Notes: generated by a model from the sequence alone, not told the origin. A DNA stretch of 64,000 bases from a virus (IMGVR_UViG_2880389630_000005); one strand, 5' to 3'. Numbered from the stretch's first letter, positions 2,984-46,962 are shown. A program made the numbers and translations.

Positions 2984-3457
2984 ATGAAAACATTGTCTCA
3001 GAACACCACCTCTTCGGCCTGTGCACCGGAGACTGGCCTGCAACAACTGGTTGCCACCATAGTCCCTGATGAACAGCGCATCAGCTTCTGGCCGCAGCAT
3101 TTTGGCCTCATTCCACAGTGGGTGACCCTGGAGCCCCGTGTCTTCGGCTGGATGGACCGTCTGTGCGAAAACTACTGCGGTGGTATCTGGAATCTGTACA
3201 CCCTGAACAACGGCGGGGCATTTATGGCCCCTGAACCGGATGACTATGATGACGAAACATGGGTACTGTTCAATGCCATGAACGGTAACCGCGCTGAAAT
3301 GAGCCCGGAAGCCGCCGGCATTGCCGCCTGTCTGATGACGTACAGTCATCACGCCTGCCGTACGGAGTGTTATGCCATGACGGTTCATTATTACCGTCTG
3401 CGGGATTACGCCCTGCAGCATCCGGAATGCAGCGCCATTATGCGCATTATTGACTGA
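2984..3457 (+). CDS. Antirestriction protein (YfjX/YafX-like)
   Basis: 157 aa from ATG 2984 (MKTLSQNTTSS...); position upstream of radC-like gene as in CP4 islands. Confidence 0.75.
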   Translation: MKTLSQNTTSSACAPETGLQQLVATIVPDEQRISFWPQHFGLIPQWVTLEPRVFGWMDRLCENYCGGIWNLYTLNNGGAFMAPEPDDYDDETWVLFNAMNGNRAEMSPEAAGIAACLMTYSHHACRTECYAMTVHYYRLRDYALQHPECSAIMRIID

Positions 3458-3472
3458 AAGGGGGCCGGAACA

Positions 3473-3949
3473 ATGCAACAGATTTCCTTTCTGCCCGGAG
3501 AAATGACAACCAGAGAGCGCAGCCTCATTCAGCGGGCCCTGAAAACCCTGGACCGCCATCTTCATGAACCCGGCGTGGCCTTCACCTCCACCCGTGCGGC
3601 ACGGGAATGGCTGATTCTGAACATGGCGGGACTGGAGCGTGAAGAATTCCGGGTGCTGTATCTGAATAACCAGAATCAGCTGATTGCCGGTGAAACCCTC
3701 TTCACCGGCACCATCAACCGCACGGAAGTCCATCCCCGGGAAGTGATTAAACGCGCCCTGTATCACAATGCCGCAGCCGTGGTGCTGGCGCACAATCACC
3801 CGTCCGGTGAAGTCACACCCAGTAAGGCAGACCGGCTTATCACCGAACGTCTGGTACAGGCACTGGGCCTGGTGGATATCCGGGTGCCGGACCATCTGAT
3901 AGTCGGTGGCAGCCAGGTTTTCTCCTTTGCCGAACATGGTCTGCTTTAA
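3473..3949 (+). CDS. yeeS: RadC-like JAB/MPN-domain protein (YeeS/YfjY family)
   Basis: 158 aa; JAMM motif HNHPSG; synteny with yeeT-cbeA-cbtA. Confidence 0.85.
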   Translation: MQQISFLPGEMTTRERSLIQRALKTLDRHLHEPGVAFTSTRAAREWLILNMAGLEREEFRVLYLNNQNQLIAGETLFTGTINRTEVHPREVIKRALYHNAAAVVLAHNHPSGEVTPSKADRLITERLVQALGLVDIRVPDHLIVGGSQVFSFAEHGLL

Positions 3950-4011
3950 CCCGTCACAACCACATCACACCTGTTTTCACTTTTATCTTCTGTCTTCAGA
4001 GGTATCCCACT

Positions 4012-4233
4012 ATGAAAATCATCACCCGTGGCGAAGCCATGCGTATTCACCGTCAGCATCCTGCATCCCGTCTTTTTCCGTTCTGTACCGGCAAATACCG
4101 CTGGCACGGCAGTGCTGAAGCGTATACCGGTCGTGAAGTGCAGGATATTCCCGGTGTGCTGGCCGTGTTTGCTGAACGCCGTAAGGACAGTTTTGGCCCG
4201 TATGTCCGGCTGATGAGCGTCACTCTGAACTGA
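4012..4233 (+). CDS. yeeT: DUF987 protein YeeT
   Basis: 73 aa MKIITRGEAMRIH...; matches YeeT family from memory. Confidence 0.8.
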   Translation: MKIITRGEAMRIHRQHPASRLFPFCTGKYRWHGSAEAYTGREVQDIPGVLAVFAERRKDSFGPYVRLMSVTLN

Positions 4234-4251
4234 GTCAGTAAGGGCATTCTG

Positions 4252-4329
4252 ATGAGCAGAATTATCACCACCACCGTGTATACACTGCATGAGCTATCCT
4301 CCACCGCACAGGAAAAAGCCCGCGACTGG
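4252..4329 (+). pseudogene. 5' fragment of an island gene (~205 aa when restored) disrupted by the Mu-like prophage
   Basis: ATG 4252 with RBS aaggg; frame continues exactly into 40148-40718 when the prophage and one repeat copy are removed. Confidence 0.7.
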
Positions 4330-4490
4330 TGTGGGGTAGTGATCAATTCTGGGCGGAGTTAGTGCAGCCTGGTAGAACCAGCAAGCCTTGTGTGGCGCGG
4401 GGTGTGGTGATTTAGTGTGATTCTGGGCGGATTTGTGAGAAATGACCAAAAACGCTTTTTTTGCGCTTTTTTCTGGGCGCTTTTGATCTG
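4330..4490 (+). repeat. Prophage left end with three direct copies of TTCTGGGCG (candidate transposase-binding sites)
   Basis: TTCTGGGCGG at 4347 and 4421, TTCTGGGCGC at 4471; same motif inverted at right end. Confidence 0.55.
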
Positions 4491-4640
4491 GTTCTGCTAC
4501 AAACTTAACGGGTTTTAAATGCTTTTAAAAAAGTGTTTTATCCTTACCCGTTTTCCTCAATTTGTTCTCATCTGTGTGTTCGGTTTTGTTGTGGTTATTG
4601 CTGATTAGCTAACAGCACACGCCCCGCCAAAACGAGGCGC

Positions 4641-5288
4641 TTATGCTGATTTCTTGTTTACAGGCTTAGTTTCTTGCTCCGGTGTGACGGGAACGCGATC
4701 ACCTGGTGTTCCAGCACAGAAAATAGCTTTGGCGCGGCGCAAAATCTCTTTGTCATTTTCCTCATCGCCAGCTAATGCCATGCAAACAGCGTCTTTAAGC
4801 GATTGCCTGATGTTCAGGCTTTGAATGGCCTTCCTTTGTTCCTCAAGTTCGCTATCGGCTTGCTTGGTTTGCCTGGTGGGTTGCTGTAGGCGTTCCAGGA
4901 CTCCTTTGATGCCAATACAACACAGCATATCAATAAGACGCTCTCTATCTTCTGGAGTAGCTCGCCTTAGTATTTCATCGACAATACTTGTGTTTGGGCG
5001 GTTAACGTCTTCTGTAGGCACCTTTTTTTCTATTATTGGATCATGCCTGCTCTCACCGTAGACCAACCATTCCAGTGATACATTCTCTAATTTTGCTATC
5101 GTAGCGACCACATTTAGGCCGGGAGTGGTGCCTTTCTCAAAGTAGTTATTTATGGTCGAGTACGGCAACCCCCAGTCTGAGGTGGCTTTACGCAGACTCC
5201 TAGTGCCAACCAGTTGCTTGATTCTGTCCTGAATGCTTTCTTTTCTATTCTGAGAAAAGGAAAAATCATCGGCGGTTTGTTTACTCAT
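4641..5288 (-). CDS. Prophage repressor (Mu c-like position), HTH DNA-binding
   Basis: 215 aa from ATG 5288 with RBS gaggaa; divergent from ner; N-terminal HTH-like segment. Confidence 0.7.
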   Translation of the reverse strand: MSKQTADDFSFSQNRKESIQDRIKQLVGTRSLRKATSDWGLPYSTINNYFEKGTTPGLNVVATIAKLENVSLEWLVYGESRHDPIIEKKVPTEDVNRPNTSIVDEILRRATPEDRERLIDMLCCIGIKGVLERLQQPTRQTKQADSELEEQRKAIQSLNIRQSLKDAVCMALAGDEENDKEILRRAKAIFCAGTPGDRVPVTPEQETKPVNKKSA

Positions 5289-5407
5289 TTTCTTTCCTCG
5301 CAATCTATTGATTTACAATGTATTTCTGCAAAAAGACTTTCTTTTCACCAAAGAAAGAAAAGAAAGCTTGTAATTTTCTATTTGTGGATCAATACTTATA
5401 TCCGAAG

Positions 5408-5429
5408 GGATAACACGGCGGTGTTATCC
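5408..5429. promoter_or_regulatory. Candidate operator: 9-bp inverted repeat GGATAACAC-N4-GTGTTATCC plus adjacent GGATAAC half-sites
   Basis: Palindrome in the c-ner intergenic region; extra half-site at 5434-5440. Confidence 0.5.
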
Positions 5430-5456
5430 GCACGGATAACTTTTAAGGGTAACCTA

Positions 5457-5693
5457 ATGATGGTTAGAAATGAAGTAATGAACAAAGACTGGCACCGCGA
5501 GTACATCGTTGCCGCTGTGCACACCAAAGGTTTTACATTGCGTGAACTTTCTGAACGCGCTGGTCTAAAAAAAGACTCTTTAAAAAATGCACTGTATCGC
5601 TCATGCCCTAAATATGAACGCATCATAGCCGATGCTATTGGTGTGGAACCTGCGGAGATCTGGCCAAGCCGGTATGCCAGTAAGGCGGCTTAA
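5457..5693 (+). CDS. ner: Ner-like DNA-binding protein
   Basis: 78 aa; resembles Mu Ner (…KDWHREYI…EIWPSRY…); immediately upstream of transposase. Confidence 0.8.
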   Translation: MMVRNEVMNKDWHREYIVAAVHTKGFTLRELSERAGLKKDSLKNALYRSCPKYERIIADAIGVEPAEIWPSRYASKAA

Positions 5694-7735
5694 TGTTTTA
5701 TTCAGCCAATGAGCTGGCCGGTCTTCCTGGTTTGCCCGGTACAGTTCAGGGGGTGCGCTGGACGCTCAATCGGATCACAGAGACGCACCCGGAATGGAAG
5801 CGCAAGCGTGAAGGCACCAAAGCATTCGAGTATCACATCGACTGCCTGCCCGCTGAAGCGCAGAAAGTTTTACGTAAGCGCCTGACCCATCAGGTCCTGG
5901 AAGATACGCAACTGCCCGCCGTGGTTGAGCAGAAGGCAGTTAAAAACGTCGCCGTTCGCGATGAACTGGAGGTGATGGTCAAATGCCCGGAACTGGCATT
6001 ACGCGAAGTCCAGGCACTGACTGACAAGCAAAAGGCCATCGCTGATGCGCGGATATTGCTGGCTACTGAAGTGCATAAACTGCGCGAATACGCCGGAATG
6101 ACCAGGAAGGCCGCGTTAAAGCACATCGTTGATGGTGTGCGCATGGGGGCGTTACCTGACCGCATTATCGAAGCAGCGAATACTGCAAATGCACGTCAGG
6201 GAAAGCGAACCGGTGTCAGCACCGGCAGCCTGGATAGCTGGTACTCCAGCTGGGTGATGGCGCGCGGTGATGCCAATCAGTTACTGGCGTTACTGGCTCC
6301 CGGTCATCATAAGGGAACACCGTGGGAGCAGGTCTGGTGGTTGAGCGATTTCTTTATGTTCTATCGCTCATGGAAGCGCCCGACCGTTGAATACGCGTAT
6401 CGCGAGTTTTCAGCCTGGTGGCATGAAAAACACGCGAATGATGCGGGAATGCTGGCAGTACTGCCTTCAGTTCACGCAGTCAGACGGGTGTTAAGCAGCG
6501 TCCCGGTGATTGTTAAAGAGCGTTTCCGCTCCACCGGTTCAGCCTGGCGTTCGCTCAATCCCTTTGTGCGGCGCGACTGGAGCACATTACCGGTTAATGC
6601 GGTATGGGTCGGGGATGGTCACTGTATGAAAATGACCGCGTTTAACCCACTGACCGGCAATATTTTCCGGCCAGAAGTGACGCTGGTTATGGATGCGGGT
6701 CAACGCTTTGTTGTGGGCTGGTCACTGTCCCTGTCGGAGAACGTGATAGCCGTTGCTGATGCGTTACGTTACGGCATGGCGCAGCACGGGATACCGCTGA
6801 TTTATTACTCCGATAACGGGGGCGGCGAAAAAAACCGGGTGCTTGACGCCGATATTACCGGGATTTTGCCCCGGCTGGGTGTGGAGCATCACACGGGGAT
6901 ACCAGGTAACCCACAGGGGCGCGGGGTGATTGAAAGGCTTAACAAGGAAATTCCCCGGGATGTGGCCCTGAGTTTCCAGACGTACTGCTCAAAGGGAGCA
7001 GACAAGGAAACCGTAATGATGCAGCAACGGATTATGCAGTCAGCCATTAAGGCCACCCACAAAGGGAAAGAACTGACAAAACGGCAGGTTAAGGCGAGGG
7101 ATGAAGTCCCCACCTTTGAGCAACTGATGGCAGCCATAGAACTGGAAGTCAGACGCTATAACAACCGGCCACACAGCAGCCTTCCTCGCAAAGAGGATGG
7201 CGAGCATTACAGCCCGGCAGCGTATCGCCGGAAACTGATAAAAGAGCAGAATGTTGAAATTGATTTCTTGTCGCCGGAAGAACTGCATGAAATGTTCAGA
7301 CCGGAGGTGACGCGCAAAACATTTCGCGGGGAAATTCAGTTATTCAACAATATTTATTACTCGTATGAGCTGGCCGCAGAGCACGGGAATGAAGTCAGGG
7401 TCAGTTACGATATTCATGATGCAAACAGCGTCATTGTCCGGCGGGCTGATGGCTCTTATATCTGCGATGCCATCTGGAACGGTAACAAGGTTGATGCCTT
7501 CGCTAAACCAGTTATCGAGCAAAAACTGGAGAAACGCGTCAGAGGCCGCATTGCACGGGCCACGCAGAAAATCGAAGAGGCTAAACGCGAGCTTACCCCG
7601 GCTATTACGCAGAAGCCTGACTTTAATCTGGGATATGGACTGGAACGCCCGGAGAAAAAGGAAAAAGAAGAACTTTATTTATTCGCATCTGAACGCGAAC
7701 GCAATTTAAAGAAAAACGGCACAAACAACCGTTAA
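5693..7735 (+). CDS. Mu A-like DDE transposase
   Basis: 680 aa; start overlaps ner stop (TAATG); size and position as Mu A. Confidence 0.9.
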   Translation: MFYSANELAGLPGLPGTVQGVRWTLNRITETHPEWKRKREGTKAFEYHIDCLPAEAQKVLRKRLTHQVLEDTQLPAVVEQKAVKNVAVRDELEVMVKCPELALREVQALTDKQKAIADARILLATEVHKLREYAGMTRKAALKHIVDGVRMGALPDRIIEAANTANARQGKRTGVSTGSLDSWYSSWVMARGDANQLLALLAPGHHKGTPWEQVWWLSDFFMFYRSWKRPTVEYAYREFSAWWHEKHANDAGMLAVLPSVHAVRRVLSSVPVIVKERFRSTGSAWRSLNPFVRRDWSTLPVNAVWVGDGHCMKMTAFNPLTGNIFRPEVTLVMDAGQRFVVGWSLSLSENVIAVADALRYGMAQHGIPLIYYSDNGGGEKNRVLDADITGILPRLGVEHHTGIPGNPQGRGVIERLNKEIPRDVALSFQTYCSKGADKETVMMQQRIMQSAIKATHKGKELTKRQVKARDEVPTFEQLMAAIELEVRRYNNRPHSSLPRKEDGEHYSPAAYRRKLIKEQNVEIDFLSPEELHEMFRPEVTRKTFRGEIQLFNNIYYSYELAAEHGNEVRVSYDIHDANSVIVRRADGSYICDAIWNGNKVDAFAKPVIEQKLEKRVRGRIARATQKIEEAKRELTPAITQKPDFNLGYGLERPEKKEKEELYLFASERERNLKKNGTNNR

Positions 7736-7753
7736 TTTAAAAGGTATTTAATT

Positions 7754-8647
7754 ATGAGTTTAATTACGCAATTAAATGACGTAATGGCCCGTCGCGGCTA
7801 TACGCAGACCCACGTCGCCCGTGCCATTGGTCGTAGCAGCGCCGTTATCAGCCAGTATTTACAGGGTAAATATCAGGGCGATATGGCTGATATTGAAGAA
7901 CGCATTTCTACCTTTGTGACCCGTGAGCGGGAAAAGGAAAACAGCCGCCGTATTAAAGCAAAGTTTGTGACCACCGGTATGGCTGCCAAAGGACTGGAGG
8001 TGCTGGCCTACGCTCACCTGGAATGTGAAATCTGTGTGCTGTATGGCGCAGCAGGTCTTGGCAAAACAATGATTCTGCGTGAATACGCCGCCAGAAACCG
8101 GGATGCGCTCCTGATTGAGGCTGACCCGGGCTATACAGCCAGAACACTGCTTGAGGAGTTGTGCCGCCAGCTGGGGGTAAAGGTTCGCGGCAACATTCAC
8201 GAACTGATAGATGCCTGTGTGCGCGAACTGCGTGATTCCGGTCGTCTGCTAATGGTGGACGAGGCTGAACTGCTCCCCTATCGCGCACTGGAGGTTCTGC
8301 GCCGTCTGCATGACAAAGCGGGTATCGGGGTTGTTCTGGCGGGTATGCCTCGTCTTCTGATTAACCTCAAGGGGCGTCGTGGTGAGTTCGCCCAGTTATA
8401 CAGCCGTGTGGCGCTGGCGCTTAACCTGGGCGATACGCTGGCGCAGGAAGATTTTAACCAGATAGCCACCGGGCTGATGCCGGAAGCAGCAGAACCGGAA
8501 ATCAGCGAGGCGCTTTATACACGTTCGCTGGGTAATGCCCGCCGCCTGTTCAAACTGGCGCGTGGTGTGTACCGGATTTGTGATATCAGCGATGCGCCGG
8601 TCAGTGTGCAGGCCATTGATAAATTCGCGGAAATGTTAATTCACTGA
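7754..8647 (+). CDS. Mu B-like AAA+ transposition/target-DNA activator
   Basis: 297 aa; Walker A GAAGLGKT; follows transposase. Confidence 0.9.
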   Translation: MSLITQLNDVMARRGYTQTHVARAIGRSSAVISQYLQGKYQGDMADIEERISTFVTREREKENSRRIKAKFVTTGMAAKGLEVLAYAHLECEICVLYGAAGLGKTMILREYAARNRDALLIEADPGYTARTLLEELCRQLGVKVRGNIHELIDACVRELRDSGRLLMVDEAELLPYRALEVLRRLHDKAGIGVVLAGMPRLLINLKGRRGEFAQLYSRVALALNLGDTLAQEDFNQIATGLMPEAAEPEISEALYTRSLGNARRLFKLARGVYRICDISDAPVSVQAIDKFAEMLIH

Positions 8648-8886
8648 TGGAGAACAAGACGATGGACAAGCAGACCATTAACGCCGTCCGTTCCCGTGCC
8701 CGTGTGGCCATCCACACCACCGGTGGTCGTGTAACGGGACAGCATCACCGTTTACCTGTGGTTTATGCCTGCCCACCTGTGGGTGGTCCTGTATGGCCGG
8801 TAACGGAAATCATCCAGACATTCAGCGGCCTGCGCCGCGTGGTGAAAACATCCTGTATCGACGGCTGCACCGTCGTATGGCAATGA
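8647..8886 (+). CDS. Hypothetical early protein
   Basis: 79 aa; ATG overlaps B stop (TGATG). Confidence 0.35.
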   Translation: MENKTMDKQTINAVRSRARVAIHTTGGRVTGQHHRLPVVYACPPVGGPVWPVTEIIQTFSGLRRVVKTSCIDGCTVVWQ

Positions 8887-8898
8887 GAGGAAATCAGA

Positions 8899-9114
8899 AT
8901 GGCGGTTAAGTTAGAAGTAATTATCTATACCGATGAAAAAGGCTGTGTTTTAACCCAGACCACGGGGAGTTATTCGAAGGACGGAGCTTCCGAAAAGGAG
9001 TTTCAGGTGGCAACAAGATTACATGATGCTATCAAGGAAACGCTCAGAAATGACTATAACGGCGTGAATCTTTTTTCTGAAAATGTTGCGCCTCGCGCAC
9101 ATAACACACATTAA
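8899..9114 (+). CDS. Hypothetical early protein
   Basis: 71 aa; RBS agaggaaa upstream. Confidence 0.45.
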   Translation: MAVKLEVIIYTDEKGCVLTQTTGSYSKDGASEKEFQVATRLHDAIKETLRNDYNGVNLFSENVAPRAHNTH

Positions 9115-9143
9115 TCTGTAAATATCACTGAGGTAATTTAATT

Positions 9144-9788
9144 ATGACGACTGAAAATAAAGTTAAGCAATACACGAAAACTCAAGCGCCTGAAGGTTAC
9201 TGGGTGGATGCCCGTGGCGTAATGACACCTGAAAGCCTTATCAAAGATATTGACCGCGACCGCGAGCAGCTGGTCGGTGAGCTTGTGGAGATGGTGATTG
9301 CTGCCTCCGCCTCACTGCGGGAACTGAAACTGCGTGCGTTTGGTGATATCCAGGCATTTATTGACCTGTCGGCGGAGAAATACGGTGCTGTGAAAGGCGG
9401 CAAAAAAGGGAATATCACGCTTTACAGCTTTGACGGGCGTTACAAGATTCAGCGCGCCATGCAGGACCGTATCGCGTTTGATGAACGCATTCAGACCGCG
9501 AAGGCGCTGATTGACGACTGTCTGGCTGACTGGACGGAAGGTGCGCGCCCTGAAATTAAAGCCATCATCAGTGAGGCATTCAGCACGGACAAGGAAGGCA
9601 ACATCAACACCGGGCGCGTTCTGGCCCTGCGTCGCCTCGAAATTGAGGACGAACGCTGGAATAACGCCATGTCGCTGATTGGTGAAGCCGTCCAGGTGAT
9701 TGGCAGCAAGAGCTATATTCGTGTGTATGAGCGCGTTGGTGATTCTGATGAATACCGCGCAATCCCTCTTGATATTGCAGGGGTTTAA
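9144..9788 (+). CDS. Conserved Mu-like early protein (possibly DUF3164-like)
   Basis: 214 aa; RBS gagg upstream; family assignment tentative, from memory. Confidence 0.6.
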   Translation: MTTENKVKQYTKTQAPEGYWVDARGVMTPESLIKDIDRDREQLVGELVEMVIAASASLRELKLRAFGDIQAFIDLSAEKYGAVKGGKKGNITLYSFDGRYKIQRAMQDRIAFDERIQTAKALIDDCLADWTEGARPEIKAIISEAFSTDKEGNINTGRVLALRRLEIEDERWNNAMSLIGEAVQVIGSKSYIRVYERVGDSDEYRAIPLDIAGV

Positions 9789-9789
9789 T

Positions 9790-10023
9790 ATGCATCAGAA
9801 TATCAAAGAGTACAGAGCCGGAAATAGTTGCGCGGCGTATTCGCTGGGCGCGTCCAGAGCAGAACAACGCGGCGATTATGACGAGGCAGAAAAACTGTGG
9901 CGCAAGGCAGCGCAAAGCCCGTGTAGCACCCTGCGCCGCATCTGGGCTGAACATCGTGCGGAGTTCTGCGCTAACGCTCACCTGAAGGGCTGGAGGCCAC
10001 GCCATGAATGCGAAGAACTTTAA
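9790..10023 (+). CDS. Hypothetical early protein
   Basis: 77 aa from ATG 9790 directly after upstream stop. Confidence 0.4.
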   Translation: MHQNIKEYRAGNSCAAYSLGASRAEQRGDYDEAEKLWRKAAQSPCSTLRRIWAEHRAEFCANAHLKGWRPRHECEEL

Positions 10024-10195
10024 TAAGCAGTATCCGGTAGGGGCTCGCTTCATGCACACTGCACATCCGGCGTTGCGTGGTGGTCGTGTGGTGAAAACCG
10101 TTTCACCTGCCAGAGATTTTAAATGTGGTTGTGTGGTTGAAATTAATGTCGAGCCTTATTTCGTTAAAGTCGAAACACTGAAAGCAGCGCATTAA
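10004..10195 (+). CDS. Hypothetical early protein
   Basis: 63 aa; RBS ggagg upstream. Confidence 0.4.
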   Translation: MNAKNFNKQYPVGARFMHTAHPALRGGRVVKTVSPARDFKCGCVVEINVEPYFVKVETLKAAH

Positions 10196-10269
10196 TTTAA
10201 TTCAATTTTAATTGTTATTTAAAACAGGCGTAAACCCGCCGGGGCTGGCTTACGCCTGAATCTAGAGAA

Positions 10270-10662
10270 ATGAAAATGAGTGTTACCGTTATCAATGAAA
10301 TGCTTGGGCGTACATTTAAAGAAGTAGTTAAGAATGAAAACGATGAACTTGTTTTTCGTGGTGATTATTCCCGGGGAGTATGGGGAACCGTGTTTACATT
10401 TTTCCACTTTCAGGAGGGCTGCGAAAAAGTCTGGATTGAGGACATCGTCGGAGACCTTGACGACCTGAAAGATGAACCGCTGACAGAGGCTGAAGTGGTT
10501 ACCGAAGAATGTGATGTTGGGGAAGGTCATCAGACATGGAGTTTCTTTAAGTTCGGCACATCAAAAGGCTGTGTAGTCGTCAGATGGTGCGGTGAGAGCG
10601 AGGGCTTTTATTCTGAGTGCGTTTCACTGAAGCGGGAATTAACTGACGTCTTCGATTTTTAA
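10270..10662 (+). CDS. Hypothetical acidic early protein
   Basis: 130 aa; strongly acidic (many D/E); no recognisable motif. Confidence 0.5.
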   Translation: MKMSVTVINEMLGRTFKEVVKNENDELVFRGDYSRGVWGTVFTFFHFQEGCEKVWIEDIVGDLDDLKDEPLTEAEVVTEECDVGEGHQTWSFFKFGTSKGCVVVRWCGESEGFYSECVSLKRELTDVFDF

Positions 10663-10725
10663 CTCTGACTTCGTTTTTTTATGGCGCAGGTAAACAGGTC
10701 TGCGCCTGAATAAGAGAAATTCATT

Positions 10726-11454
10726 ATGGAAAATAAAAGCAAATACATTGCCAAAATTAAAAAGCTGTTACGCCTTGCCAAAGGAACATCAAGCCCGGAA
10801 GAAGCCGCTAACGCTATTGCAAAAGCCCAGGCTTATATGCGCCAGCATGGTATCAGCGAAAACGACGCTGAATTGTTCGACATTCAGGAAGCTGCCAGCG
10901 CGGGTGCACCGAGTGATGCCAGTACGCCGCCGCTTTATATGCACATCCTGTGTGACCTGGTCTGTAAAGCCTTCGGCGTCGAGTGTTACATCTCCGGTGA
11001 GTACCGGGCTTCTGGTTTACTCAAACGTTACGTGCGTTTTTATGGCCCTGACAGCCGCCCGGAAATCGCGGCTTACGCGTTTGATGTGCTTTCCCGTCAG
11101 ATGATGGCTGAACGCAAGAAATATCAGGATAAACACTGCAAACGTTGCGGCCCGTCCACGCGGGTGGCCCGTGGCGACCAGTTCTGCGAAGGCTGGGTCT
11201 TTGGTGCCCGTGATGTCATTGCGGTGTATGACGTCTCCCCGGAAGAAAAAAGCCGCCTTGAGCTTTACAGAAAGAACCTGCACAGCACTAAAGGACTGCG
11301 CGACGGGGATATGCGTACGGCTAAAGCGTGCCGGGGTGCAGAGTTTGCCGCTACTGCCGGTTTTATCGCCGGGAAAAACGCCAGGCTGCATCAGGGGGTT
11401 AATGGTCAGAGCAACAGACCGCTGGCACTGGGAGGGTGTAACGATGGCTTTTAA
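10726..11454 (+). CDS. DUF2786-like phage protein
   Basis: 242 aa; N-terminal IAKIKKLLRLAKGTSSPEEAANAIAKAQAYMRQH matches the DUF2786 signature (from memory). Confidence 0.65.
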   Translation: MENKSKYIAKIKKLLRLAKGTSSPEEAANAIAKAQAYMRQHGISENDAELFDIQEAASAGAPSDASTPPLYMHILCDLVCKAFGVECYISGEYRASGLLKRYVRFYGPDSRPEIAAYAFDVLSRQMMAERKKYQDKHCKRCGPSTRVARGDQFCEGWVFGARDVIAVYDVSPEEKSRLELYRKNLHSTKGLRDGDMRTAKACRGAEFAATAGFIAGKNARLHQGVNGQSNRPLALGGCNDGF

Positions 11455-11671
11455 ACTTCTTAGTGTTACCGAAGCAATATACCAGCCTCCTGGAGAACGC
11501 CACGAATACAGGATGAATGACGGTAGCGCGGTGGTTGAGTTCCCCGGATATCCGGGGGCTTCCCGGTGGCGGTTCTACGACAGTGTGGGACGTCGGATTA
11601 TTAAAAGAACCGTGCACAACAATATGAAGGCTGCCGTAGAACGTCATAAGAGAAGGTTTAACTGCAAATGA
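11444..11671 (+). CDS. Hypothetical early protein
   Basis: 75 aa; RBS ggaggg upstream of ATG 11444. Confidence 0.4.
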   Translation: MAFKLLSVTEAIYQPPGERHEYRMNDGSAVVEFPGYPGASRWRFYDSVGRRIIKRTVHNNMKAAVERHKRRFNCK

Positions 11672-11898
11672 AAATTGAATTTTATGACCATGGGGTCACC
11701 GCAACTATCACTATTTCTTGTTGGTTCTGGGAGTTCCACCGTTACTTCAGAGTTGTAGATGCTGCGCTGTTTGTTGCACCGGGAGCGTTACATCACAGTG
11801 GAATCGGTATTGTTATGAACACTGTCATCAGCGGTAAAACGGTCCCGATGTTGCGGGCGTTTAAAGTGGCAAAACAGGAGGCTGGCAATGGTCATTGA
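11668..11898 (+). CDS. Hypothetical early protein
   Basis: 76 aa; start overlaps upstream stop. Confidence 0.3.
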   Translation: MKIEFYDHGVTATITISCWFWEFHRYFRVVDAALFVAPGALHHSGIGIVMNTVISGKTVPMLRAFKVAKQEAGNGH

Positions 11899-12178
11899 TA
11901 AAACGATAACGATAGATGTAGCCATGAATACAGGTCTGGCGCTTATCGGTTATGGCTATATCACTTTTATGTCATTCAGGTGGTTGATTTCTTCGATCTT
12001 TAAGCAGCGTGAAAAACGTCGTTGTAAAGACAAGCGCGCGAAGGCGCTAAATACGTTTAATGACGCTTTTGATATTGACCGTATGCAACAGGGCGACCCC
12101 GCACGTGTAATTACCCGGGGAGATATCGTGATTTTGGTATACCGGAGTGAAAAAAATGAGCAGGAGGCGGCGCAGTGA
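11888..12178 (+). CDS. Hypothetical small membrane protein
   Basis: 96 aa; hydrophobic segment LALIGYGYITFMSF; RBS ggagg. Confidence 0.45.
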   Translation: MVIDKTITIDVAMNTGLALIGYGYITFMSFRWLISSIFKQREKRRCKDKRAKALNTFNDAFDIDRMQQGDPARVITRGDIVILVYRSEKNEQEAAQ

Positions 12179-12483
12179 ACCAGCAAACCAGAATAAGCGA
12201 TAAGAGCCTGACCAGACTGATTGCCGATGCTGACAAAATGCTTGATATGCGCGGGCTGATTGTAGACAGAGAGTGGTGGACGCTTTTACGTCAGTCCCTG
12301 ACTGAACTTCAGGAGCGCCGCAAAAACAGCATTTCCGAATCTGGAATCCGTGCTGAAACCCTGAATGATTTAATCCGACATATTGACAGAAACGTGGATA
12401 TTGATGCGATGAAATCGCCGTTTGAACTGTCATCTGAAATTGTGGATTACGTTAATAAGCAACTGCACAAGGAGAATACGTAA
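12175..12483 (+). CDS. Hypothetical early protein
   Basis: 102 aa; GTG start with RBS aggagg. Confidence 0.45.
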   Translation: MNQQTRISDKSLTRLIADADKMLDMRGLIVDREWWTLLRQSLTELQERRKNSISESGIRAETLNDLIRHIDRNVDIDAMKSPFELSSEIVDYVNKQLHKENT

Positions 12484-12844
12484 TGCAGGTGGCATTTGTT
12501 GGCTTATTACCACATCCGATCCGTTTTTGGCTGTCATCGTCACTCATAAAGTCGCATGTTTTTACTGATGACAACGGCATCCCGCCCCCAAAGCGTCGTA
12601 CAGGTATTGCAGCTGCACGACGTGCAGCAAAGAAACGCAGGAGAGCAAAACGATGAAAAACCGTAAAGCAAGACTGCTGATAGCAAAACCCGGGCAGCTT
12701 ATCCGTATCTCAAATCGGCTTGTTGTTCGCTATAGATATCTTGGTTTTAGGGAGTGGTCCTCTATTCGTTTTTACGGTGTCTGGCGAAACAGAAGCGCAG
12801 CCCAAAACCGCTGGAAAAATCACGGTATGTAAAGGAGGTACCAA

Positions 12845-13255
12845 GTGAAGAAAATGATTTTTGTGGCGGCATTGCTAACCATTACCCAACATACGCAGGC
12901 TTCAGCAGTTATTGTGGCATCTACCGCTGCGACCACTGCTGCCGCAGCTGCAGCGAACTCTGCGAATATCGCAAACCAACAGGCACAGCGTGCTGCTAAT
13001 GCATCAGCCAGTGCTCTCCCGATTTCTGTTAAGGGCAGTAAGCAAAATCTGGGGTTCATAACGTGCGGTAAGCGTTCTTATGAAGCTGTAGGATCACTGG
13101 GATGTACGGTATATGGCGACAGTGAGAGCAGAGAAATTCCATGGAAAACGTGGCCCGGATACGTTCTTGGCTCGAAGCTCCCGGCCAGTTATGAGGTAAA
13201 CGCCGTGTCGTTTGATCACTATAACGACGTGGCAACTGTCTATTTCACATACTGA
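12845..13255 (+). CDS. Exported hypothetical protein (signal peptide), candidate moron
   Basis: 136 aa; RBS aaggagg; leader MKKMIFVAALLTITQHTQA; followed by hairpin at 13361-13386. Confidence 0.55.
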   Translation: MKKMIFVAALLTITQHTQASAVIVASTAATTAAAAAANSANIANQQAQRAANASASALPISVKGSKQNLGFITCGKRSYEAVGSLGCTVYGDSESREIPWKTWPGYVLGSKLPASYEVNAVSFDHYNDVATVYFTY

Positions 13256-13360
13256 GGCCCGGCATGAAATTTTCTGAATCACGGAGCAACAACACGATGA
13301 AAGCCATCACCGTAACTCGACGTTCCTGATTTCGCGAGTTGTTTAAACAGTAATCAAATG

Positions 13361-13386
13361 CAGACCAAAACATGTTTTTTGGTCTG
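13361..13386 (+). terminator. Hairpin CAGACCAAAA-loop-TTTTGGTCTG, terminator-like
   Basis: 10-bp perfect stem; T-rich 3' arm. Confidence 0.45.
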
Positions 13387-13409
13387 CCAAAAGTAGTGTT
13401 TTGGTCATT

Positions 13410-13688
13410 ATGAAGATTGAACAAATCGGAATGGCAGCCTTCCGGCAACAGGCTGAAAGCGGTGGCATGGATGAGTTCGTCGTGCAGCGGTTCGGTGGTG
13501 TGTATCACCTCTTCGCTGTGAATCGCCGCGCCGGGGTATCCTATTTTCTACAGGAACGCCGGGGCGATTACAAGACGTGGCTGTCTCTTGACCGTGCCGC
13601 CGCGTTCCTGTCAGGGATTGGCGTTTCACGTTTTACCGTGCGTTTTGAGGATAACAAACATGCTGAAAAAGATGATCGGGGCCATTAA
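13410..13688 (+). CDS. Hypothetical protein
   Basis: 92 aa from ATG 13410; overlaps start of GemA-like gene. Confidence 0.3.
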   Translation: MKIEQIGMAAFRQQAESGGMDEFVVQRFGGVYHLFAVNRRAGVSYFLQERRGDYKTWLSLDRAAAFLSGIGVSRFTVRFEDNKHAEKDDRGH

Positions 13689-14058
13689 AGCTGGTCAGGC
13701 GTATCTGGGGTGGGATGATGCCCTTTATCGCCAGACGCTGGCCCGCCTGACCGGTAAAACCAGCACCACACGCTGCAATCTCGATGAACTGCGCATCATC
13801 CGGGAATACATGCACGAACAGGGATTCCCGCGCAAGGCACCCACCGGTAAAGGTCGCCGCCCTCGTGTTGCAATGAGCAGAAAATCAGTATTATCCAAAA
13901 TTGAAGCGTTGCTGGCTGATGCAGGTCGTTCCTGGGCGTATGCAGAAGGACTGGCATCTCACATGTATAAGCAACATGTGATCGAATGGCTGACGGATGA
14001 ACAGCTTTTTGGAGTGATGGTGGCGCTGGTTAAAGATTCAAGAAGGAGAAATCAATGA
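13660..14058 (+). CDS. GemA-like protein (Mu gp16 family)
   Basis: 132 aa from ATG 13660 with RBS gagga; position just upstream of mor-like gene. Confidence 0.65.
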   Translation: MLKKMIGAIKAGQAYLGWDDALYRQTLARLTGKTSTTRCNLDELRIIREYMHEQGFPRKAPTGKGRRPRVAMSRKSVLSKIEALLADAGRSWAYAEGLASHMYKQHVIEWLTDEQLFGVMVALVKDSRRRNQ

Positions 14059-14531
14059 TGAAAAAATGGTTGTTTTGTTTAGTAGGGGTTATTTTCTCTT
14101 GTTCTGTGCTGGCACAGACAGAGGAACAGGCGCAAAAGGAACTGAAACGTTATCAGGATATGAAGCCATTGGCTGAACAGATGCTTCGGGAAAGTGGAAA
14201 ACTTTATTACGCTATGCCAGAAGCTGCATCGCAGTATCAGCAGGGAAATATTGAAGAGTGGAAGAATATCAAAAAAGGACTAAAACAACTGGATGAACAG
14301 GCCAGTAAACTGGGGGACGACCCGCTTGATCCTGTGTATGGTTCCTGCATAAAAATGAAAAACCAGCTACAGGATTACTGGTCTAACGTTATCAGGGATG
14401 ACAGGCAGTTTCTGGAACGTTCAAGAAATCAGTTTAAAGAATATCGTATGGATTGTTTTGATTCGTTTGTTTTTGGTAAAGAGCAAATAGAATCAAGAAA
14501 AGGCCTGGTTATTCTAGACCTGACTAAATAA
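14055..14531 (+). CDS. Exported hypothetical protein (signal peptide), candidate moron
   Basis: 158 aa; leader MMKKWLFCLVGVIFSCSVLA; strong terminator immediately downstream. Confidence 0.55.
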   Translation: MMKKWLFCLVGVIFSCSVLAQTEEQAQKELKRYQDMKPLAEQMLRESGKLYYAMPEAASQYQQGNIEEWKNIKKGLKQLDEQASKLGDDPLDPVYGSCIKMKNQLQDYWSNVIRDDRQFLERSRNQFKEYRMDCFDSFVFGKEQIESRKGLVILDLTK

Positions 14532-14543
14532 GACTTAGTTTAG

Positions 14544-14568
14544 CCCCTGCCATGCAGGGGATTTTTTT
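14544..14568 (+). terminator. Rho-independent terminator
   Basis: Stem CCCCTGC/GCAGGGG followed by TTTTTTT. Confidence 0.8.
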
Positions 14569-14631
14569 GTGGTCTGTACAGGCGATCATGTATGGCTATA
14601 ATAACAGTAAGTTACTACCGGAGACGCCATC

Positions 14632-15099
14632 ATGCAGACCTTCAGTGAAACAGATCTTCGCGATGCGCAGGCACTGCTGCCCGATTCCGTGCAGCAACTG
14701 ATTAGCGTGATTGGCTTCCCCGCCCTGACCCGGTTAATCCGTTCTTTTGGTGGTGTGACGTTAAGCGGTAAAACCGGCGCACACGCCGAACGCACCGGCG
14801 GTGTCCATGCCCTGTTACATGACGTGCTGACCGAAGACGAAATCAACAAACTGATCCGCTTTCTTGGCGGTGCACCGTTTTACATTCCCCGTTGTGATCA
14901 TGCTTTACGTGCCCTGCGTAACACCCGTTTTATGGCTGATTTACAGCAGCATGTAAAAGGCGGATGCTCACACCGACAGGCGCTGGCACTGCTCTGTCCC
15001 CGTTACGGCATTTCAGACCGGTACGCATGGCAACTGATACACCGACGACAAAAACAGACTTCGCTGAAAAGCCCCACCCAGGTGGGGCTTTTTGATTAA
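14632..15099 (+). CDS. Mor/C-family transcription activator (middle operon regulator-like)
   Basis: 155 aa; FYIPRCD and C-terminal RYGIS...AWQLIHRR resemble Mu Mor (from memory). Confidence 0.65.
   Translation: MQTFSETDLRDAQALLPDSVQQLISVIGFPALTRLIRSFGGVTLSGKTGAHAERTGGVHALLHDVLTEDEINKLIRFLGGAPFYIPRCDHALRALRNTRFMADLQQHVKGGCSHRQALALLCPRYGISDRYAWQLIHRRQKQTSLKSPTQVGLFD
15071..15093 (+). terminator. Rho-independent terminator overlapping the mor-like stop
   Basis: Stem GCCCCACC/GGTGGGGC followed by TTTTT. Confidence 0.65.
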
Positions 15100-15124
15100 T
15101 GGGCCTCAGAAAAAGGAGACACTT

Positions 15125-15403
15125 ATGACCAACTATACGGCACTTGGCGAGTATACGGCCTACTCAGAGCAGGCACGGGATGCTGCCGGACGCCGCTTCG
15201 CTTATATGAAAAACCTGGCCAACCAACTAAACCGAATGGCCGAACAACCGGATATGGTTGTTCAGGAAGAAGCGTTACAGTGTGCCATTGCTGACATCAT
15301 CGCCAGCGAAAACGAGATGCGCGCAGCGATGGAAAAGGCGAACGCCTCTGCTCCGCTTTGTAATAAACCTCTTATTACGCCGGATTCTCTTTCCCGCTTC
15401 TGA
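15125..15403 (+). CDS. Hypothetical protein
   Basis: 92 aa from ATG 15125; RBS aaaaaggaga. Confidence 0.4.
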   Translation: MTNYTALGEYTAYSEQARDAAGRRFAYMKNLANQLNRMAEQPDMVVQEEALQCAIADIIASENEMRAAMEKANASAPLCNKPLITPDSLSRF

Positions 15404-45002: not shown

Positions 45003-46175
45003 TCAGGCCTTATGGTGGAAATAATCACTCAGGCGGGAAAACATGCTGCCTTCCCCGACAGATTCCAGGGTAACCAGCGGCCAGTGCGCCACCTGTTTAT
45101 CACGGTCGTAAAGTTCAATTTCCCCTACCCGCTGATGGGCGCTAATTGGCGCGGTGAGTTCTTTACCATCAAGGGTATATTTGGCTTTGATATGTGGAAT
45201 TTCGGCTTTCGGTAGCACCATCCAGAACTCTTGTTCCGTTCCCAGGGCGATATTTTCTTTATCACCATACCAGATGCGTTCCGTACCGACCTTTTTCCCA
45301 CGGTGCAAAATTTGCACCGTAGTAAAGTTTTGTTGCCCCCAACGCAGTAATTTTCTTGCCTCTTCCTCACGACCTTTTGCGCTGTCAGCCCCCATTACCA
45401 CTGCAATGAGGCGACGCTGCCCGTCTACAGCCGAAGCAATAAGATTAAACCCGGCACCAGAAGTATGGCCCGTTTTCAGGCCGTCAACATTCATGGTTTT
45501 ATCCCACAATAACCCGTTACGGTTTTGCTGGGTGATACCGTTCCAGGTGAGGCTTTTCTCACTGTACATATGATAAAACTCGGGCTCGCCGTGGATGATA
45601 GCGCGAGAAAGCACGGCTAAATCATAAGCCGAGCTATGCTGGCCAGGTGCATCCAGACCATGCACTGTTTCAAAATGCGTATCCTTGAGATGCAGCTTCT
45701 CGGCATAGTTGTTCATCATTTCAACAAACTGCCGTTGCCCACCGGCAATATAGTCAGCCAGAGCAACACAAGCGTCATTTCCGGAATCCACAATTAAACC
45801 ACGGCTTAAATCACGTACCGATACGCGATCGCCCTCTTTCAAAAACATCAGTGAAGAACCGACAAACACCGGATTATCTTTCGCCCACGCATCACGCCCC
45901 ACGGTGACAATATCGTCTGGCGTAATGCGATGACTATCGATAGCGCGATCCACGACATAGCCCGTCATCAGCTTTGTCAGGCTGGCGGGATTGCGCTGTT
46001 GATGCTCATTACCCGCGGTGAGAATCTGACCGGTGGTGTAATCCATCAATACCCAGGACCCGGCATGAATCTCTGGAGGCTGAGGTGAAAAAGGAATGTT
46101 TTCCGCCGCAAAACCAGACGATAAATTAAAAACGAACAAAGAAGCAGCAATAATAAGACGGCGTTTCAACAGCAA
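45003..46175 (-). CDS. dacD: D-alanyl-D-alanine carboxypeptidase DacD (PBP6b)
   Basis: ~388-390 aa; signal peptide; matches DacD from memory. Confidence 0.9.
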   Translation of the reverse strand: MLLKRRLIIAASLFVFNLSSGFAAENIPFSPQPPEIHAGSWVLMDYTTGQILTAGNEHQQRNPASLTKLMTGYVVDRAIDSHRITPDDIVTVGRDAWAKDNPVFVGSSLMFLKEGDRVSVRDLSRGLIVDSGNDACVALADYIAGGQRQFVEMMNNYAEKLHLKDTHFETVHGLDAPGQHSSAYDLAVLSRAIIHGEPEFYHMYSEKSLTWNGITQQNRNGLLWDKTMNVDGLKTGHTSGAGFNLIASAVDGQRRLIAVVMGADSAKGREEEARKLLRWGQQNFTTVQILHRGKKVGTERIWYGDKENIALGTEQEFWMVLPKAEIPHIKAKYTLDGKELTAPISAHQRVGEIELYDRDKQVAHWPLVTLESVGEGSMFSRLSDYFHHKA

Positions 46176-46377
46176 ACCCTCAGGTGTTTCAAATAGCTGT
46201 TCTTTTTACGGAAATACTTATGAACTGGCTGGAATAAAGTGCAAGAAAATGTGACTACTATCTCATTTTTATCTGACATGATCTGTTGCCACTCGCTGCC
46301 AAATTGTCGCGCTAAAGCTGATTAGCACGGTGATATTTGATACTCTGGCAGACAGCAGAAATAACGGATTTAACCTA

Positions 46378-46425
46378 ATGATGAATGACGGTAAGCAACA
46401 ATCTACCTTTTTGTTTCACGATTAC
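46378..46425 (+). pseudogene. sbcB: sbcB (exonuclease I) 5' stump, truncated by P22-like prophage insertion
   Basis: Encodes MMNDGKQQSTFLFHDY (SbcB N-terminus from memory), then diverges and stops at 46438-46440. Confidence 0.8.
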
Positions 46426-46962
46426 GCGCAACACCCCTGAGAACCGCCATGAACAAGGGTTTCATGATTTGTGATTTTAGTTTGGTACGCAATTTGGTAC
46501 ACAACACAATTTTCACTTCAGCGGGTAGTCATCAAACTCACCATAACGAGCATCGTTGATGATGTATGTGATCACCACAAATATCACATCTGGACTAGTT
46601 CCGTCTTCATGCGCAGGTATTTGTTCACGCCTCCCTTTCTGCAAATCCTAAAGATGAGATTTTGGGGTTTTGGGATATCTTTTTATCCTCAGTTCTCTAT
46701 CCATTCTACAAAGCAGTAATGAACCATCACCGTGTGATAGTGAGGCATCCGCTACGTTAAGCGCAGAGAAATGATGCAGTGGTGGTCGGACTGGATTGAT
46801 GAAAAGGTGTAGCAACCAACATTGCTATATCTCAGATAGCACAAAGCCTTGCAATCCAGTGCAAAGCTTTGTGTGTCTCAGTTTTTATAAATTCTTAAGC
46901 AAGAATTATAGTTATAACTATTATGTAAATTTTATGATATATATTGTATTTAAATGCTGGTT

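Follow-up and report, generated by a model that had tools for sequence, protein, structure and literature searches.

What is the purpose of the many small genes that a transposable phage of the Mu type carries behind gene B? The question is raised here by positions 8647-12833 of a viral sequence of 64,000 nucleotides (nt), IMGVR_UViG_2880389630_000005, referred to below as the window. A first-pass annotation made from the sequence had described this interval as a dense cluster of about 13 short open reading frames (ORFs) with their own ribosome-binding sites (RBSs), in the semi-essential (SE) position where such phages keep host-takeover and anti-defence functions. With a probability of roughly three in four, we read it as the distal, semi-essential portion of the early operon in a Mu-like prophage of the active type, composed of a conserved backbone, two slots of plasticity, and a hairpin element acting as the joint at which cassettes are exchanged. 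It is an ordinary Mu-type SE region, and its sequence is already public and annotated with DUF names in RefSeq. The sequence comparisons establish that the genes are real, the families to which they belong, their synteny, the variability of the cassettes, the conservation and covariation of the hairpin, and the exclusivity of Gam and DUF3164; we infer every biochemical function ascribed to the block below.

The interval lies in the interior of a Mu-like transposable prophage of Escherichia coli. In the annotation of strain S13, the gene order is repressor, ner-like helix-turn-helix gene, Mu-type transposase (A), AAA ATPase (B), the small genes, gp16/GemA, Mor, holins, endolysin, terminase, and head genes. 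BLASTP against Mu matched B to Mu B (33% identity, E 7e-21) and also confirmed A, GemA, and Mor/C; the block directly follows the Mu-type transposase and the B ATPase, in the semi-essential position originally assigned to it. By megablast, E. coli S13, R4, and AVS0151 carry the stretch at 100% identity, and 15 of 5,426 complete E. coli genomes, including that of the enteropathogenic E. coli (EPEC) strain E2348/69, carry it at 83-100% coverage and 91-100% identity. Four strains hold the prophage at four chromosomal positions, as expected of a transposing phage. In the window, the left end of the prophage (about 3347-4640) adjoins a TonB-dependent receptor gene that is truncated and lies next to yeiG and folE; the insertion has thus inactivated a host gene for an outer-membrane receptor.

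Thirteen plus-strand ORFs fill 8647-12832 with hardly any spacers (Table 1, the labels of which are used here), with Shine-Dalgarno-like sequences at most of them and many overlapping stop and start codons. Each matches a PHROG phage family (E 8e-10 to 4e-94); they are thus genuine genes, as the first-pass annotation had taken them to be, and not ORFs arising by chance. Two of them, 11444-11671 and 12483-12656, are unannotated in the identical RefSeq record (NZ_CP107117.1) despite family matches with E values of 1.6e-39 and 6e-24. That the prophage is defective and its ORFs are in decay, with no current function, is scarcely conceivable. Nothing specific speaks for decay beyond the interrupted host receptor gene and the missing RefSeq annotation of some ORFs, whereas all ORFs are intact, each with its phage family match, the lysis, head, and tail genes follow in full, and 6,559 blocks of an assembly collection list the exact Kil-like product of the first ORF, at different insertion sites.

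The division of the block into backbone and cargo emerges from 80 viral contigs encoding DUF3164, against the ORFs of which all window and Mu early proteins were scored. The recurrent order in these loci is Ner-A-B-(Kil)-DUF3164-(ANR)-(o5)-(DUF2786)-(o8)-...-GemA-Mor, with o8 often immediately 3′ of DUF2786. DUF3164 is found in all 80, o5 in 41, DUF2786 in 36, and ANR and o8 in 30 each, and counts fall to between 2 and 6 for each of o2, o9 to o15, and DUF4752, and to a single locus for DUF7448. Thus, about half of the cluster is conserved backbone and the remainder local cargo. The Kil homologue, DUF3164, ANR, o5, DUF2786/DUF7168, and o8 would constitute a backbone that travels with the transposition module.

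The SE region of Mu itself (kil, gp6-9, gam, gp11-15, gemA, mor) likewise follows A and B, in the same orientation and with the same operon logic, beginning with a Kil homologue, ending with GemA and a Mor-family activator, and containing many small genes of unknown function. Beyond Kil and GemA, however, no SE protein is common to the two by BLASTP; Mu has Gam and is without DUF3164, ANR, DUF2786/DUF7168, DUF7448, and DUF4752, whereas Gam is absent here. A similar architecture is described in a study of Mu-like phages of Pseudomonas aeruginosa, in which a core is accompanied by "regions of genomic plasticity" at fixed sites, most of them in the left (early) arm, with accessory ORFs of 34-100 codons (Cazares et al. 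2014, PMC4378225). These phages thus share a conserved backbone with short accessory ORFs at fixed sites, but have other hosts and other genes, and the passages of that paper concerned with DUFs, Gam, and early genes make no mention of a hairpin at slot boundaries.

Near-identical E. coli prophages vary at two places, from o5 to DUF2786 (slot 1) and past DUF4752 (slot 2). In slot 2, o11 is replaced in relatives by ead/Ea22-like, XF1762, and other genes; the DNA of o12 and o13 is 78-86% identical to genes beside ead/Ea22 in Shiga toxin (Stx) phages, 933W, and phiV10, and o13 is common to lambdoid and epsilon15-like phages. This slot would be home to small basic proteins that also occur in the ea/ead regions of lambdoid phages. 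For the DUF4752 product next to it, a transmembrane call was dropped, the Kyte-Doolittle maximum being only 1.24.

Slot 1 is marked by the hairpin element, with the only spacers in 8647-12833 flanking the DUF7448 gene. Copy A (10217-10262) consists of an AU-rich tract followed by CAGGCGTAAACCCGCC/GGCTGGCTTACGCCTG (16-nt arms with a GGCGTAA...TTACGCC stem), TGAAT, an RBS, and ATG, and variant copy B, between the DUF7448 and DUF2786 genes, reads GGCGCAGGTAAACAGGTCTGCGCCTGAAT (GGCGCAG...CTGCGCC stem). Against a covariance model built from 16 variants, copy A scored 60.6 bits and copy B 41.8 bits (E 8e-8), with RNA folds of -19.2 kcal/mol (z -3.0) and -17.4 kcal/mol (z -3.2), respectively. Folds of the element were stable overall (-15.6 to -19.2 kcal/mol, z -2.1 to -3.2) and left the RBS free. 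In relatives, the hairpin repeats ahead of each cassette, and its copy number tracks the number of cassettes: the arrays observed are hairpin-DUF2786, hairpin-60aa-DUF2786, hairpin-181aa-hairpin-DUF2786, hairpin-DUF7448-variant-181aa-hairpin-DUF2786, and a three-cassette version (60aa and 181aa being cassettes named by their length in amino acids, aa). The order of cassettes is constant across them, as would result from the loss of cassettes by recombination between repeats. In slot 1 of E2348/69 (L002, 5689-5907), RefSeq gives a minus-strand ORF of 72 aa; the sequence there is the hairpin with the plus-strand 60-aa cassette (MNIAKQ...) of other relatives, and the minus-strand call is thus probably wrong.

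The element is not confined to this lineage. It was detected 58 times in the window and across the DUF3164 lineage, immediately 3′ of an o5 homologue, and in 48 of 48 close relatives of Mu about 36 nt past gam, including Mu itself (L003, 6358-6403), with a further copy at 5943-5988 of L010. All matches to the model were on the plus strand. Across 103 hairpin elements, the next ORF begins a median of 15 nt downstream, and these ORFs belong to 25 unrelated families; a Pfam match was found for none of the nine cargo families tested. Over 44 distinct sequences, 99.3% of cells in the 7-bp outer stem are paired, and double-sided changes occur at three stem pairs (TAA/TTA, CGA/TCG, and CAG/CTG). Since the seed set was chosen for intact stems and alignment to the model favours structure, the weight of the covariation rests on the three versions of the stem, on the presence of two of them within one phage, and on the inner stem of the Klebsiella copies, which differs in sequence yet pairs.

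These observations bear on whether the hairpin is no RNA element but a palindrome to which a protein binds on the DNA, or leftover recombination homology, with no role in expression. Such an origin would suit a near-perfect palindrome with conserved half-sites (GGCGTAA/TTACGCC) that always sits at the boundary between conserved and variable DNA. However, the coexistence of TAA/TTA and CAG/CTG stems in one phage argues against a single sequence-specific binder, and the pairing of the divergent Klebsiella inner stem, two G-U pairs on the plus strand, a fixed orientation, and the short fixed distance to the next start codon are not readily explained by a site on DNA, which we regard as on the unlikely side. 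Two narrower RNA readings were dropped: a CsrA site, with GGA in the loop and at the RBS, because copies A and B are without GGA, and a minus-strand terminator, because there is no T-run on either strand. Neither a sigma-70 consensus at the hairpin nor a U-run after the stem was found, a search of 4300-15300 returned no Rfam family for it, and no paper on a stem-loop in the Mu early region was found in the literature.

In the reading of the block as backbone, slots, and joint, the unit of AU-rich tract, 30-nt hairpin, and TGAAT, lying about 15 nt ahead of a start codon, would provide the homology through which cassettes enter, leave, or replace one another. At the mRNA level, it may double as a processing site and 5′ stabilising leader, in which an RNase E-type site in the AU-rich tract is followed by a 5′ hairpin that keeps the cassette expressed. 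The closest known analogue is the PeSL of T4-type phages, an early promoter with a terminator-like stem-loop that mediates modular shuffling (PMC2839356, PMC4122927). PeSL, too, is a repeated stem-loop motif bordering variable genes, with insertions, deletions, and replacements mapping to it; unlike PeSL, the present element has no promoter consensus and no U-tract, and it lies inside a long operon directly ahead of an RBS. Integron cassettes are also unlike this arrangement, in that here the hairpin precedes the cassette and no integrase is annotated from the repressor to the head genes (L001).

Among the backbone genes, the first ORF and an ANR-family gene had been overlooked in the first-pass annotation, which held that no product resembled Mu Gam or Kil. 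The first ORF matches phrog_2679, "Kil protein for bacterial septation inhibition," with an E value of 6e-35, improving to 8.4e-38 over the full 79-position profile when read from the ATG at 8647, which overlaps the B stop; the better full-profile value supports the start originally proposed. Mu Kil belongs to phrog_2743 and cross-matches phrog_2679 at 9e-5, and the first ORF cross-matches phrog_2743 at 5e-3. By BLASTP, the first ORF and Mu Kil are 34% identical over the C-terminal 44 residues (E 6e-4). The two are similar in length (74-79 aa and 74 aa) and are both the first gene after B. With the phrog_2679 and Mu Kil matches and the same length and position, the statement about Kil fails: judged by its sequence, the first ORF is a distant Kil homologue, and its product would block host cell division.

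For Gam, the same statement holds. No ORF of the region has a Pfam (PF07352) or PHROG match to Gam, and neither BLASTP nor tblastn found Mu Gam anywhere in the 64-kb window. The place of Gam appears to be taken by DUF3164, a family with 3,072 homologues, the best 120 of which are 65-97% identical, and with a mean column identity of 71% in a sample. A Gam homologue occurs in 0 of the 80 DUF3164-encoding loci and, conversely, DUF3164 occurs in 0 of 80 Gam-encoding viral loci searched with phmmer and a DUF3164 hidden Markov model; both are placed with B/Kil on one side and a variable region on the other. DUF2786 is found in 9 of the 80 Gam-encoding loci and thus accompanies either protein. Homology of DUF3164 and Gam was considered and rejected, since hhalign of the DUF3164 profile with Mu Gam gave a non-significant probability of 0.65%, and positional exclusivity alone was retained. 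Protein and profile searches of PDB sequences returned no significant solved relative of DUF3164. The exclusivity is a lead for functional replacement, in which DUF3164 would fill the role that Gam has in Mu.

The second overlooked gene, o4 (9790-10023), encodes an ANR-family protein by sequence, scoring 58.3 bits against NCBIfam NF033650 (cut-off 32, E 4.9e-16). ANR proteins are under 10 kDa and carry the signature A10, E14, A22, W26, A29, W43, and R47 (PMC4983702), and all seven residues are present in o4 as A21, E25, A33, W37, A40, W52, and R56. The spacing from A21 to A40 is exact, and W52 and R56 come after a loop that is two residues shorter than in the family, between helices 2 and 3, and are followed by F59-C60. 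Thus, o4 resembles Aar of enteroaggregative E. coli, Rnr, and Cnr in its small size, its above-cut-off match to NF033650, and its signature residues; it differs from them in this loop and in being encoded in a phage early operon rather than near, or in the regulon of, a virulence AraC-type activator. In the DUF3164-type loci that carry it, the ANR gene mostly adjoins DUF3164. According to the ANR literature, these proteins work by binding AraC-family activators and H-NS (PMC4983702; PMC5570504, PMC10148876). By analogy, o4 would titrate H-NS and/or AraC-family regulators through protein-protein contacts, and so lift the silencing of phage DNA or reprogramme the host.

The 10726-11454 product was correctly described at the outset as having a DUF2786-like N-terminus: DUF2786 (PF10979) covers residues 6-45 (E 5.8e-13), and C-terminal to it, residues 62-189 match DUF7168 (PF23771, E 5.1e-28). 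Protein and profile searches of PDB sequences gave nothing significant. The core of the protein is possibly KH-like but without the first helix, and the GXXG loop of KH domains is absent, the corresponding loop having conserved A61, P62, S63, A65, and P69 instead; nucleic-acid binding is thus not implied. This weakens the case that DUF3164, o5, DUF2786/DUF7168, and o8 are the phage's own accessories for transposition and DNA handling (end protection, target choice, or single-strand binding) rather than effectors directed at the host. No sequence or profile link to replication or transposition proteins was found for them, and the SE region of Mu is dispensable for growth under laboratory conditions (PMC3820752). 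Such an accessory role nevertheless has a substantial chance of being correct, although one clearly below even.

As had been noted, the 10270-10662 product is acidic, with an isoelectric point (pI) of 4.41, 27 D+E residues (21%) against 13 K+R, and a net charge of -14. It matches DUF7448 (PF24240) at 57.4 bits (cut-off 27). A word-indexed search returned 25 close homologues and a profile search 4,611 cluster representatives; the family is large, and its stand-alone members are uniformly acidic (median pI 4.3, with 96% below pI 5). The alignment shows invariant H, CC, E, W, and R and a GESNGYYSE motif, and a confident AlphaFold model of the protein (predicted local distance difference test score 84, predicted template modelling score 0.81) is nearly all beta. 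Klebsiella likewise has the gene in a Mu-like early region, 3′ of DUF3164. On a metagenomic phage contig (L009, 5815-6183), a DUF7448 gene lies amid genes for ribonucleotide reductase, PhoH, dUTPase, ThyX, two DNA methylases, HNH, and GIY-YIG proteins, in an apparently lytic phage. A Pfam scan of 41 long DUF7448 proteins revealed two fused to a YAcAr/SLOG domain and no other informative fusion.

The first-pass annotation had suggested a DNA-mimic inhibitor. Foldseek of the model against the PDB returned nothing at E <= 0.001, the best match being the immunity protein Tsi3 (E 0.05), and no known DNA mimic is among the matches listed in either structure search; searches of PDB sequences with the protein and its profile were also without significant result. 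With DNA mimics of the Ocr/ArdA type, DUF7448 shares net negative charge, small size, and early expression in a phage; unlike them, it is all-beta rather than elongated, helical, or charge-patterned, its acidity is moderate, and no structural similarity was detected. The suggestion is thus unsupported. PIM7 (PDB 8owu_E), the immunity protein of the DNase polymorphic toxin PT7, is 13% identical to DUF7448. The DUF7448 sequence profile gave no signal to PIM7, which Foldseek did not recover, and no toxin gene lies beside DUF7448, its neighbours o5 and DUF2786 being without a detected toxin domain. Furthermore, DUF7448 has conserved His/Cys/Glu and GESNGYYSE residues, whereas the PT7-binding residues of PIM7 are reported to be only partly conserved. 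Because Foldseek gave no PDB match at E <= 0.001, the similarity to PIM7 is only a lead. In the present reading, the most likely, though no more than possible, role of DUF7448 is the stoichiometric inhibition of a basic target, either a nucleic-acid-binding protein or a nuclease, as distinct from classical DNA mimicry.

The broader proposal, in which the cluster is an anti-defence and host-takeover island with the acidic protein mimicking DNA so as to inhibit restriction, RecBCD, or further defence proteins that bind DNA, is quite improbable. PADLOC defence models matched nothing in the region, bar one sub-threshold match for o8, and literature searches on the five DUF names turned up only genome-annotation mentions. 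A more far-reaching version of our own reading is also unlikely, although less so; in it, the hairpin site would be a dedicated platform for cassette exchange and expression, extending from Mu to the Mu-like phages of E. coli and Klebsiella and collecting host-takeover or anti-defence cargo, with DUF7448 as a new inhibitor, widespread among phages, of a host nuclease or of a defence protein that binds nucleic acids, DUF3164 as a non-homologous replacement for Gam, and ANR as an anti-H-NS factor. Several points count against the functional reading of the block preferred here: no Pfam Kil_protein match is on record for the exact product of the first ORF; the 160 loci behind the Gam/DUF3164 exclusivity span few lineages, so that shared ancestry is an adequate alternative; and the conserved polar motifs of DUF7448 would also fit a ligand- or metal-binding role.

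All 13 genes would be read rightwards on one early transcript, from an early promoter upstream of ner/A/B to a terminator at 14544-14560, with many of them translationally coupled. A consensus scan found no strong promoter or terminator within 8647-12833 and a GC-rich hairpin with a T-run at 14544-14560, past the last early gene, and the SE region of Mu is carried on a single long Pe transcript (PMC3820752); together, these observations argue for a single polycistronic message. Within 14544-14602, this strong hairpin of the intrinsic-terminator type (CCCCTGCCATGCAGGGG and T-run) is followed 15 nt beyond by the best promoter-like site of the region (10/12 matches), just upstream of the Mor/C-family activator gene (14632-15099). 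Unlike that of Mu, this activator gene may have its own promoter past the early terminator.

Other features of the window lie outside the block. The products of 12845-13255 (MKKMIFVAALLTITQHTQASA...) and 14055-14531 (MMKKWLFCLVGVIFSCSVLAQ...) begin with signal-peptide-like segments, the latter also lipobox-like and without a PHROG or Pfam match; both may be proteins that the prophage exports or places on the surface. An inverted repeat with an 11-bp stem (GCAGACCAAAAAACATGTTTTGGTCTGC, minus strand) at 13360-13387 occupies the 13255-13410 spacer, one of few other non-coding gaps in the early operon. Well away from the early region, the G+C content falls to about 0.40 over ~7 kb (46000-53000), possibly another horizontally acquired island.

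Table 1. Genes, hairpin copies, and variable slots of the early region, in window coordinates.
Feature	Position	Strand	Remarks
Mu-type transposase (A)	5693-7735		directly upstream of B
B ATPase	7754-8647		directly upstream of small-gene block
Kil-like small basic protein	8647-8886	+	79 aa; ATG overlaps B stop; RefSeq start 8662 gives 74 aa
o2, 71 aa, function unknown	8899-9114	+	phrog_7438, E 1e-52; only in close relatives, 6/80 loci
DUF3164 protein, most conserved gene of block	9144-9788	+	PF11363, E 2.5e-81
o4, ANR-family (Aar-like) small anti-regulator, 77 aa	9790-10023	+	NF033650, E 4.9e-16
o5, 63-aa basic protein, ends conserved proximal block	10004-10195	+	phrog_5591, E 2e-39; 41/80 loci
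Slot 1	10196-10725		DUF7448 gene as exchangeable cassette
Hairpin element, copy A	10217-10262	+	8 nt ahead of DUF7448 start
DUF7448 acidic all-beta protein, slot 1 cassette	10270-10662	+	130 aa (128 from 10276)
Hairpin element, variant copy B	10673-10712	+	ahead of DUF2786 gene
DUF2786 (N-terminal helical hairpin) + DUF7168 (alpha/beta core) protein, 242 aa	10726-11454	+	
o8, 75-aa basic protein	11444-11671	+	phrog_9400, E 1.6e-39; called as gene in L014 and other assemblies; 30/80 loci
o9, 76 aa, function unknown	11668-11898	+	phrog_1001, E 4e-29
DUF4752 protein, 96 aa	11888-12178	+	PF15944, E 2e-39; phrog_667
Slot 2	about 12175-12832		after DUF4752; small basic proteins
o11, 102 aa, opens variable slot 2	12175-12483	+	phrog_14672, E 1e-21, N-terminal half only
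o12, 57 aa, very basic	12483-12656	+	phrog_13831, E 6e-24
o13, 59 aa, very basic, pI 12	12653-12832	+	phrog_1380, E 8e-10

Within this ordinary SE region, the hairpin hotspot common to Mu, the mutual exclusivity of Gam and DUF3164, and the phage-borne ANR protein are modestly interesting leads. As a cheap sequence handle, the hairpin could serve for harvesting the accessory cargo of Mu-like prophages, which may include anti-defence genes. DUF3164, at the position of Gam, is a testable candidate for Gam-independent handling of DNA ends. ANR proteins have hitherto been studied as modulators of virulence. That many Mu-like phages encode one in their conserved early operon points to an origin or a use in phages, such as the countering of H-NS silencing; a phage-borne ANR would also be relevant to EPEC E2348/69, which bears a prophage of the same type.

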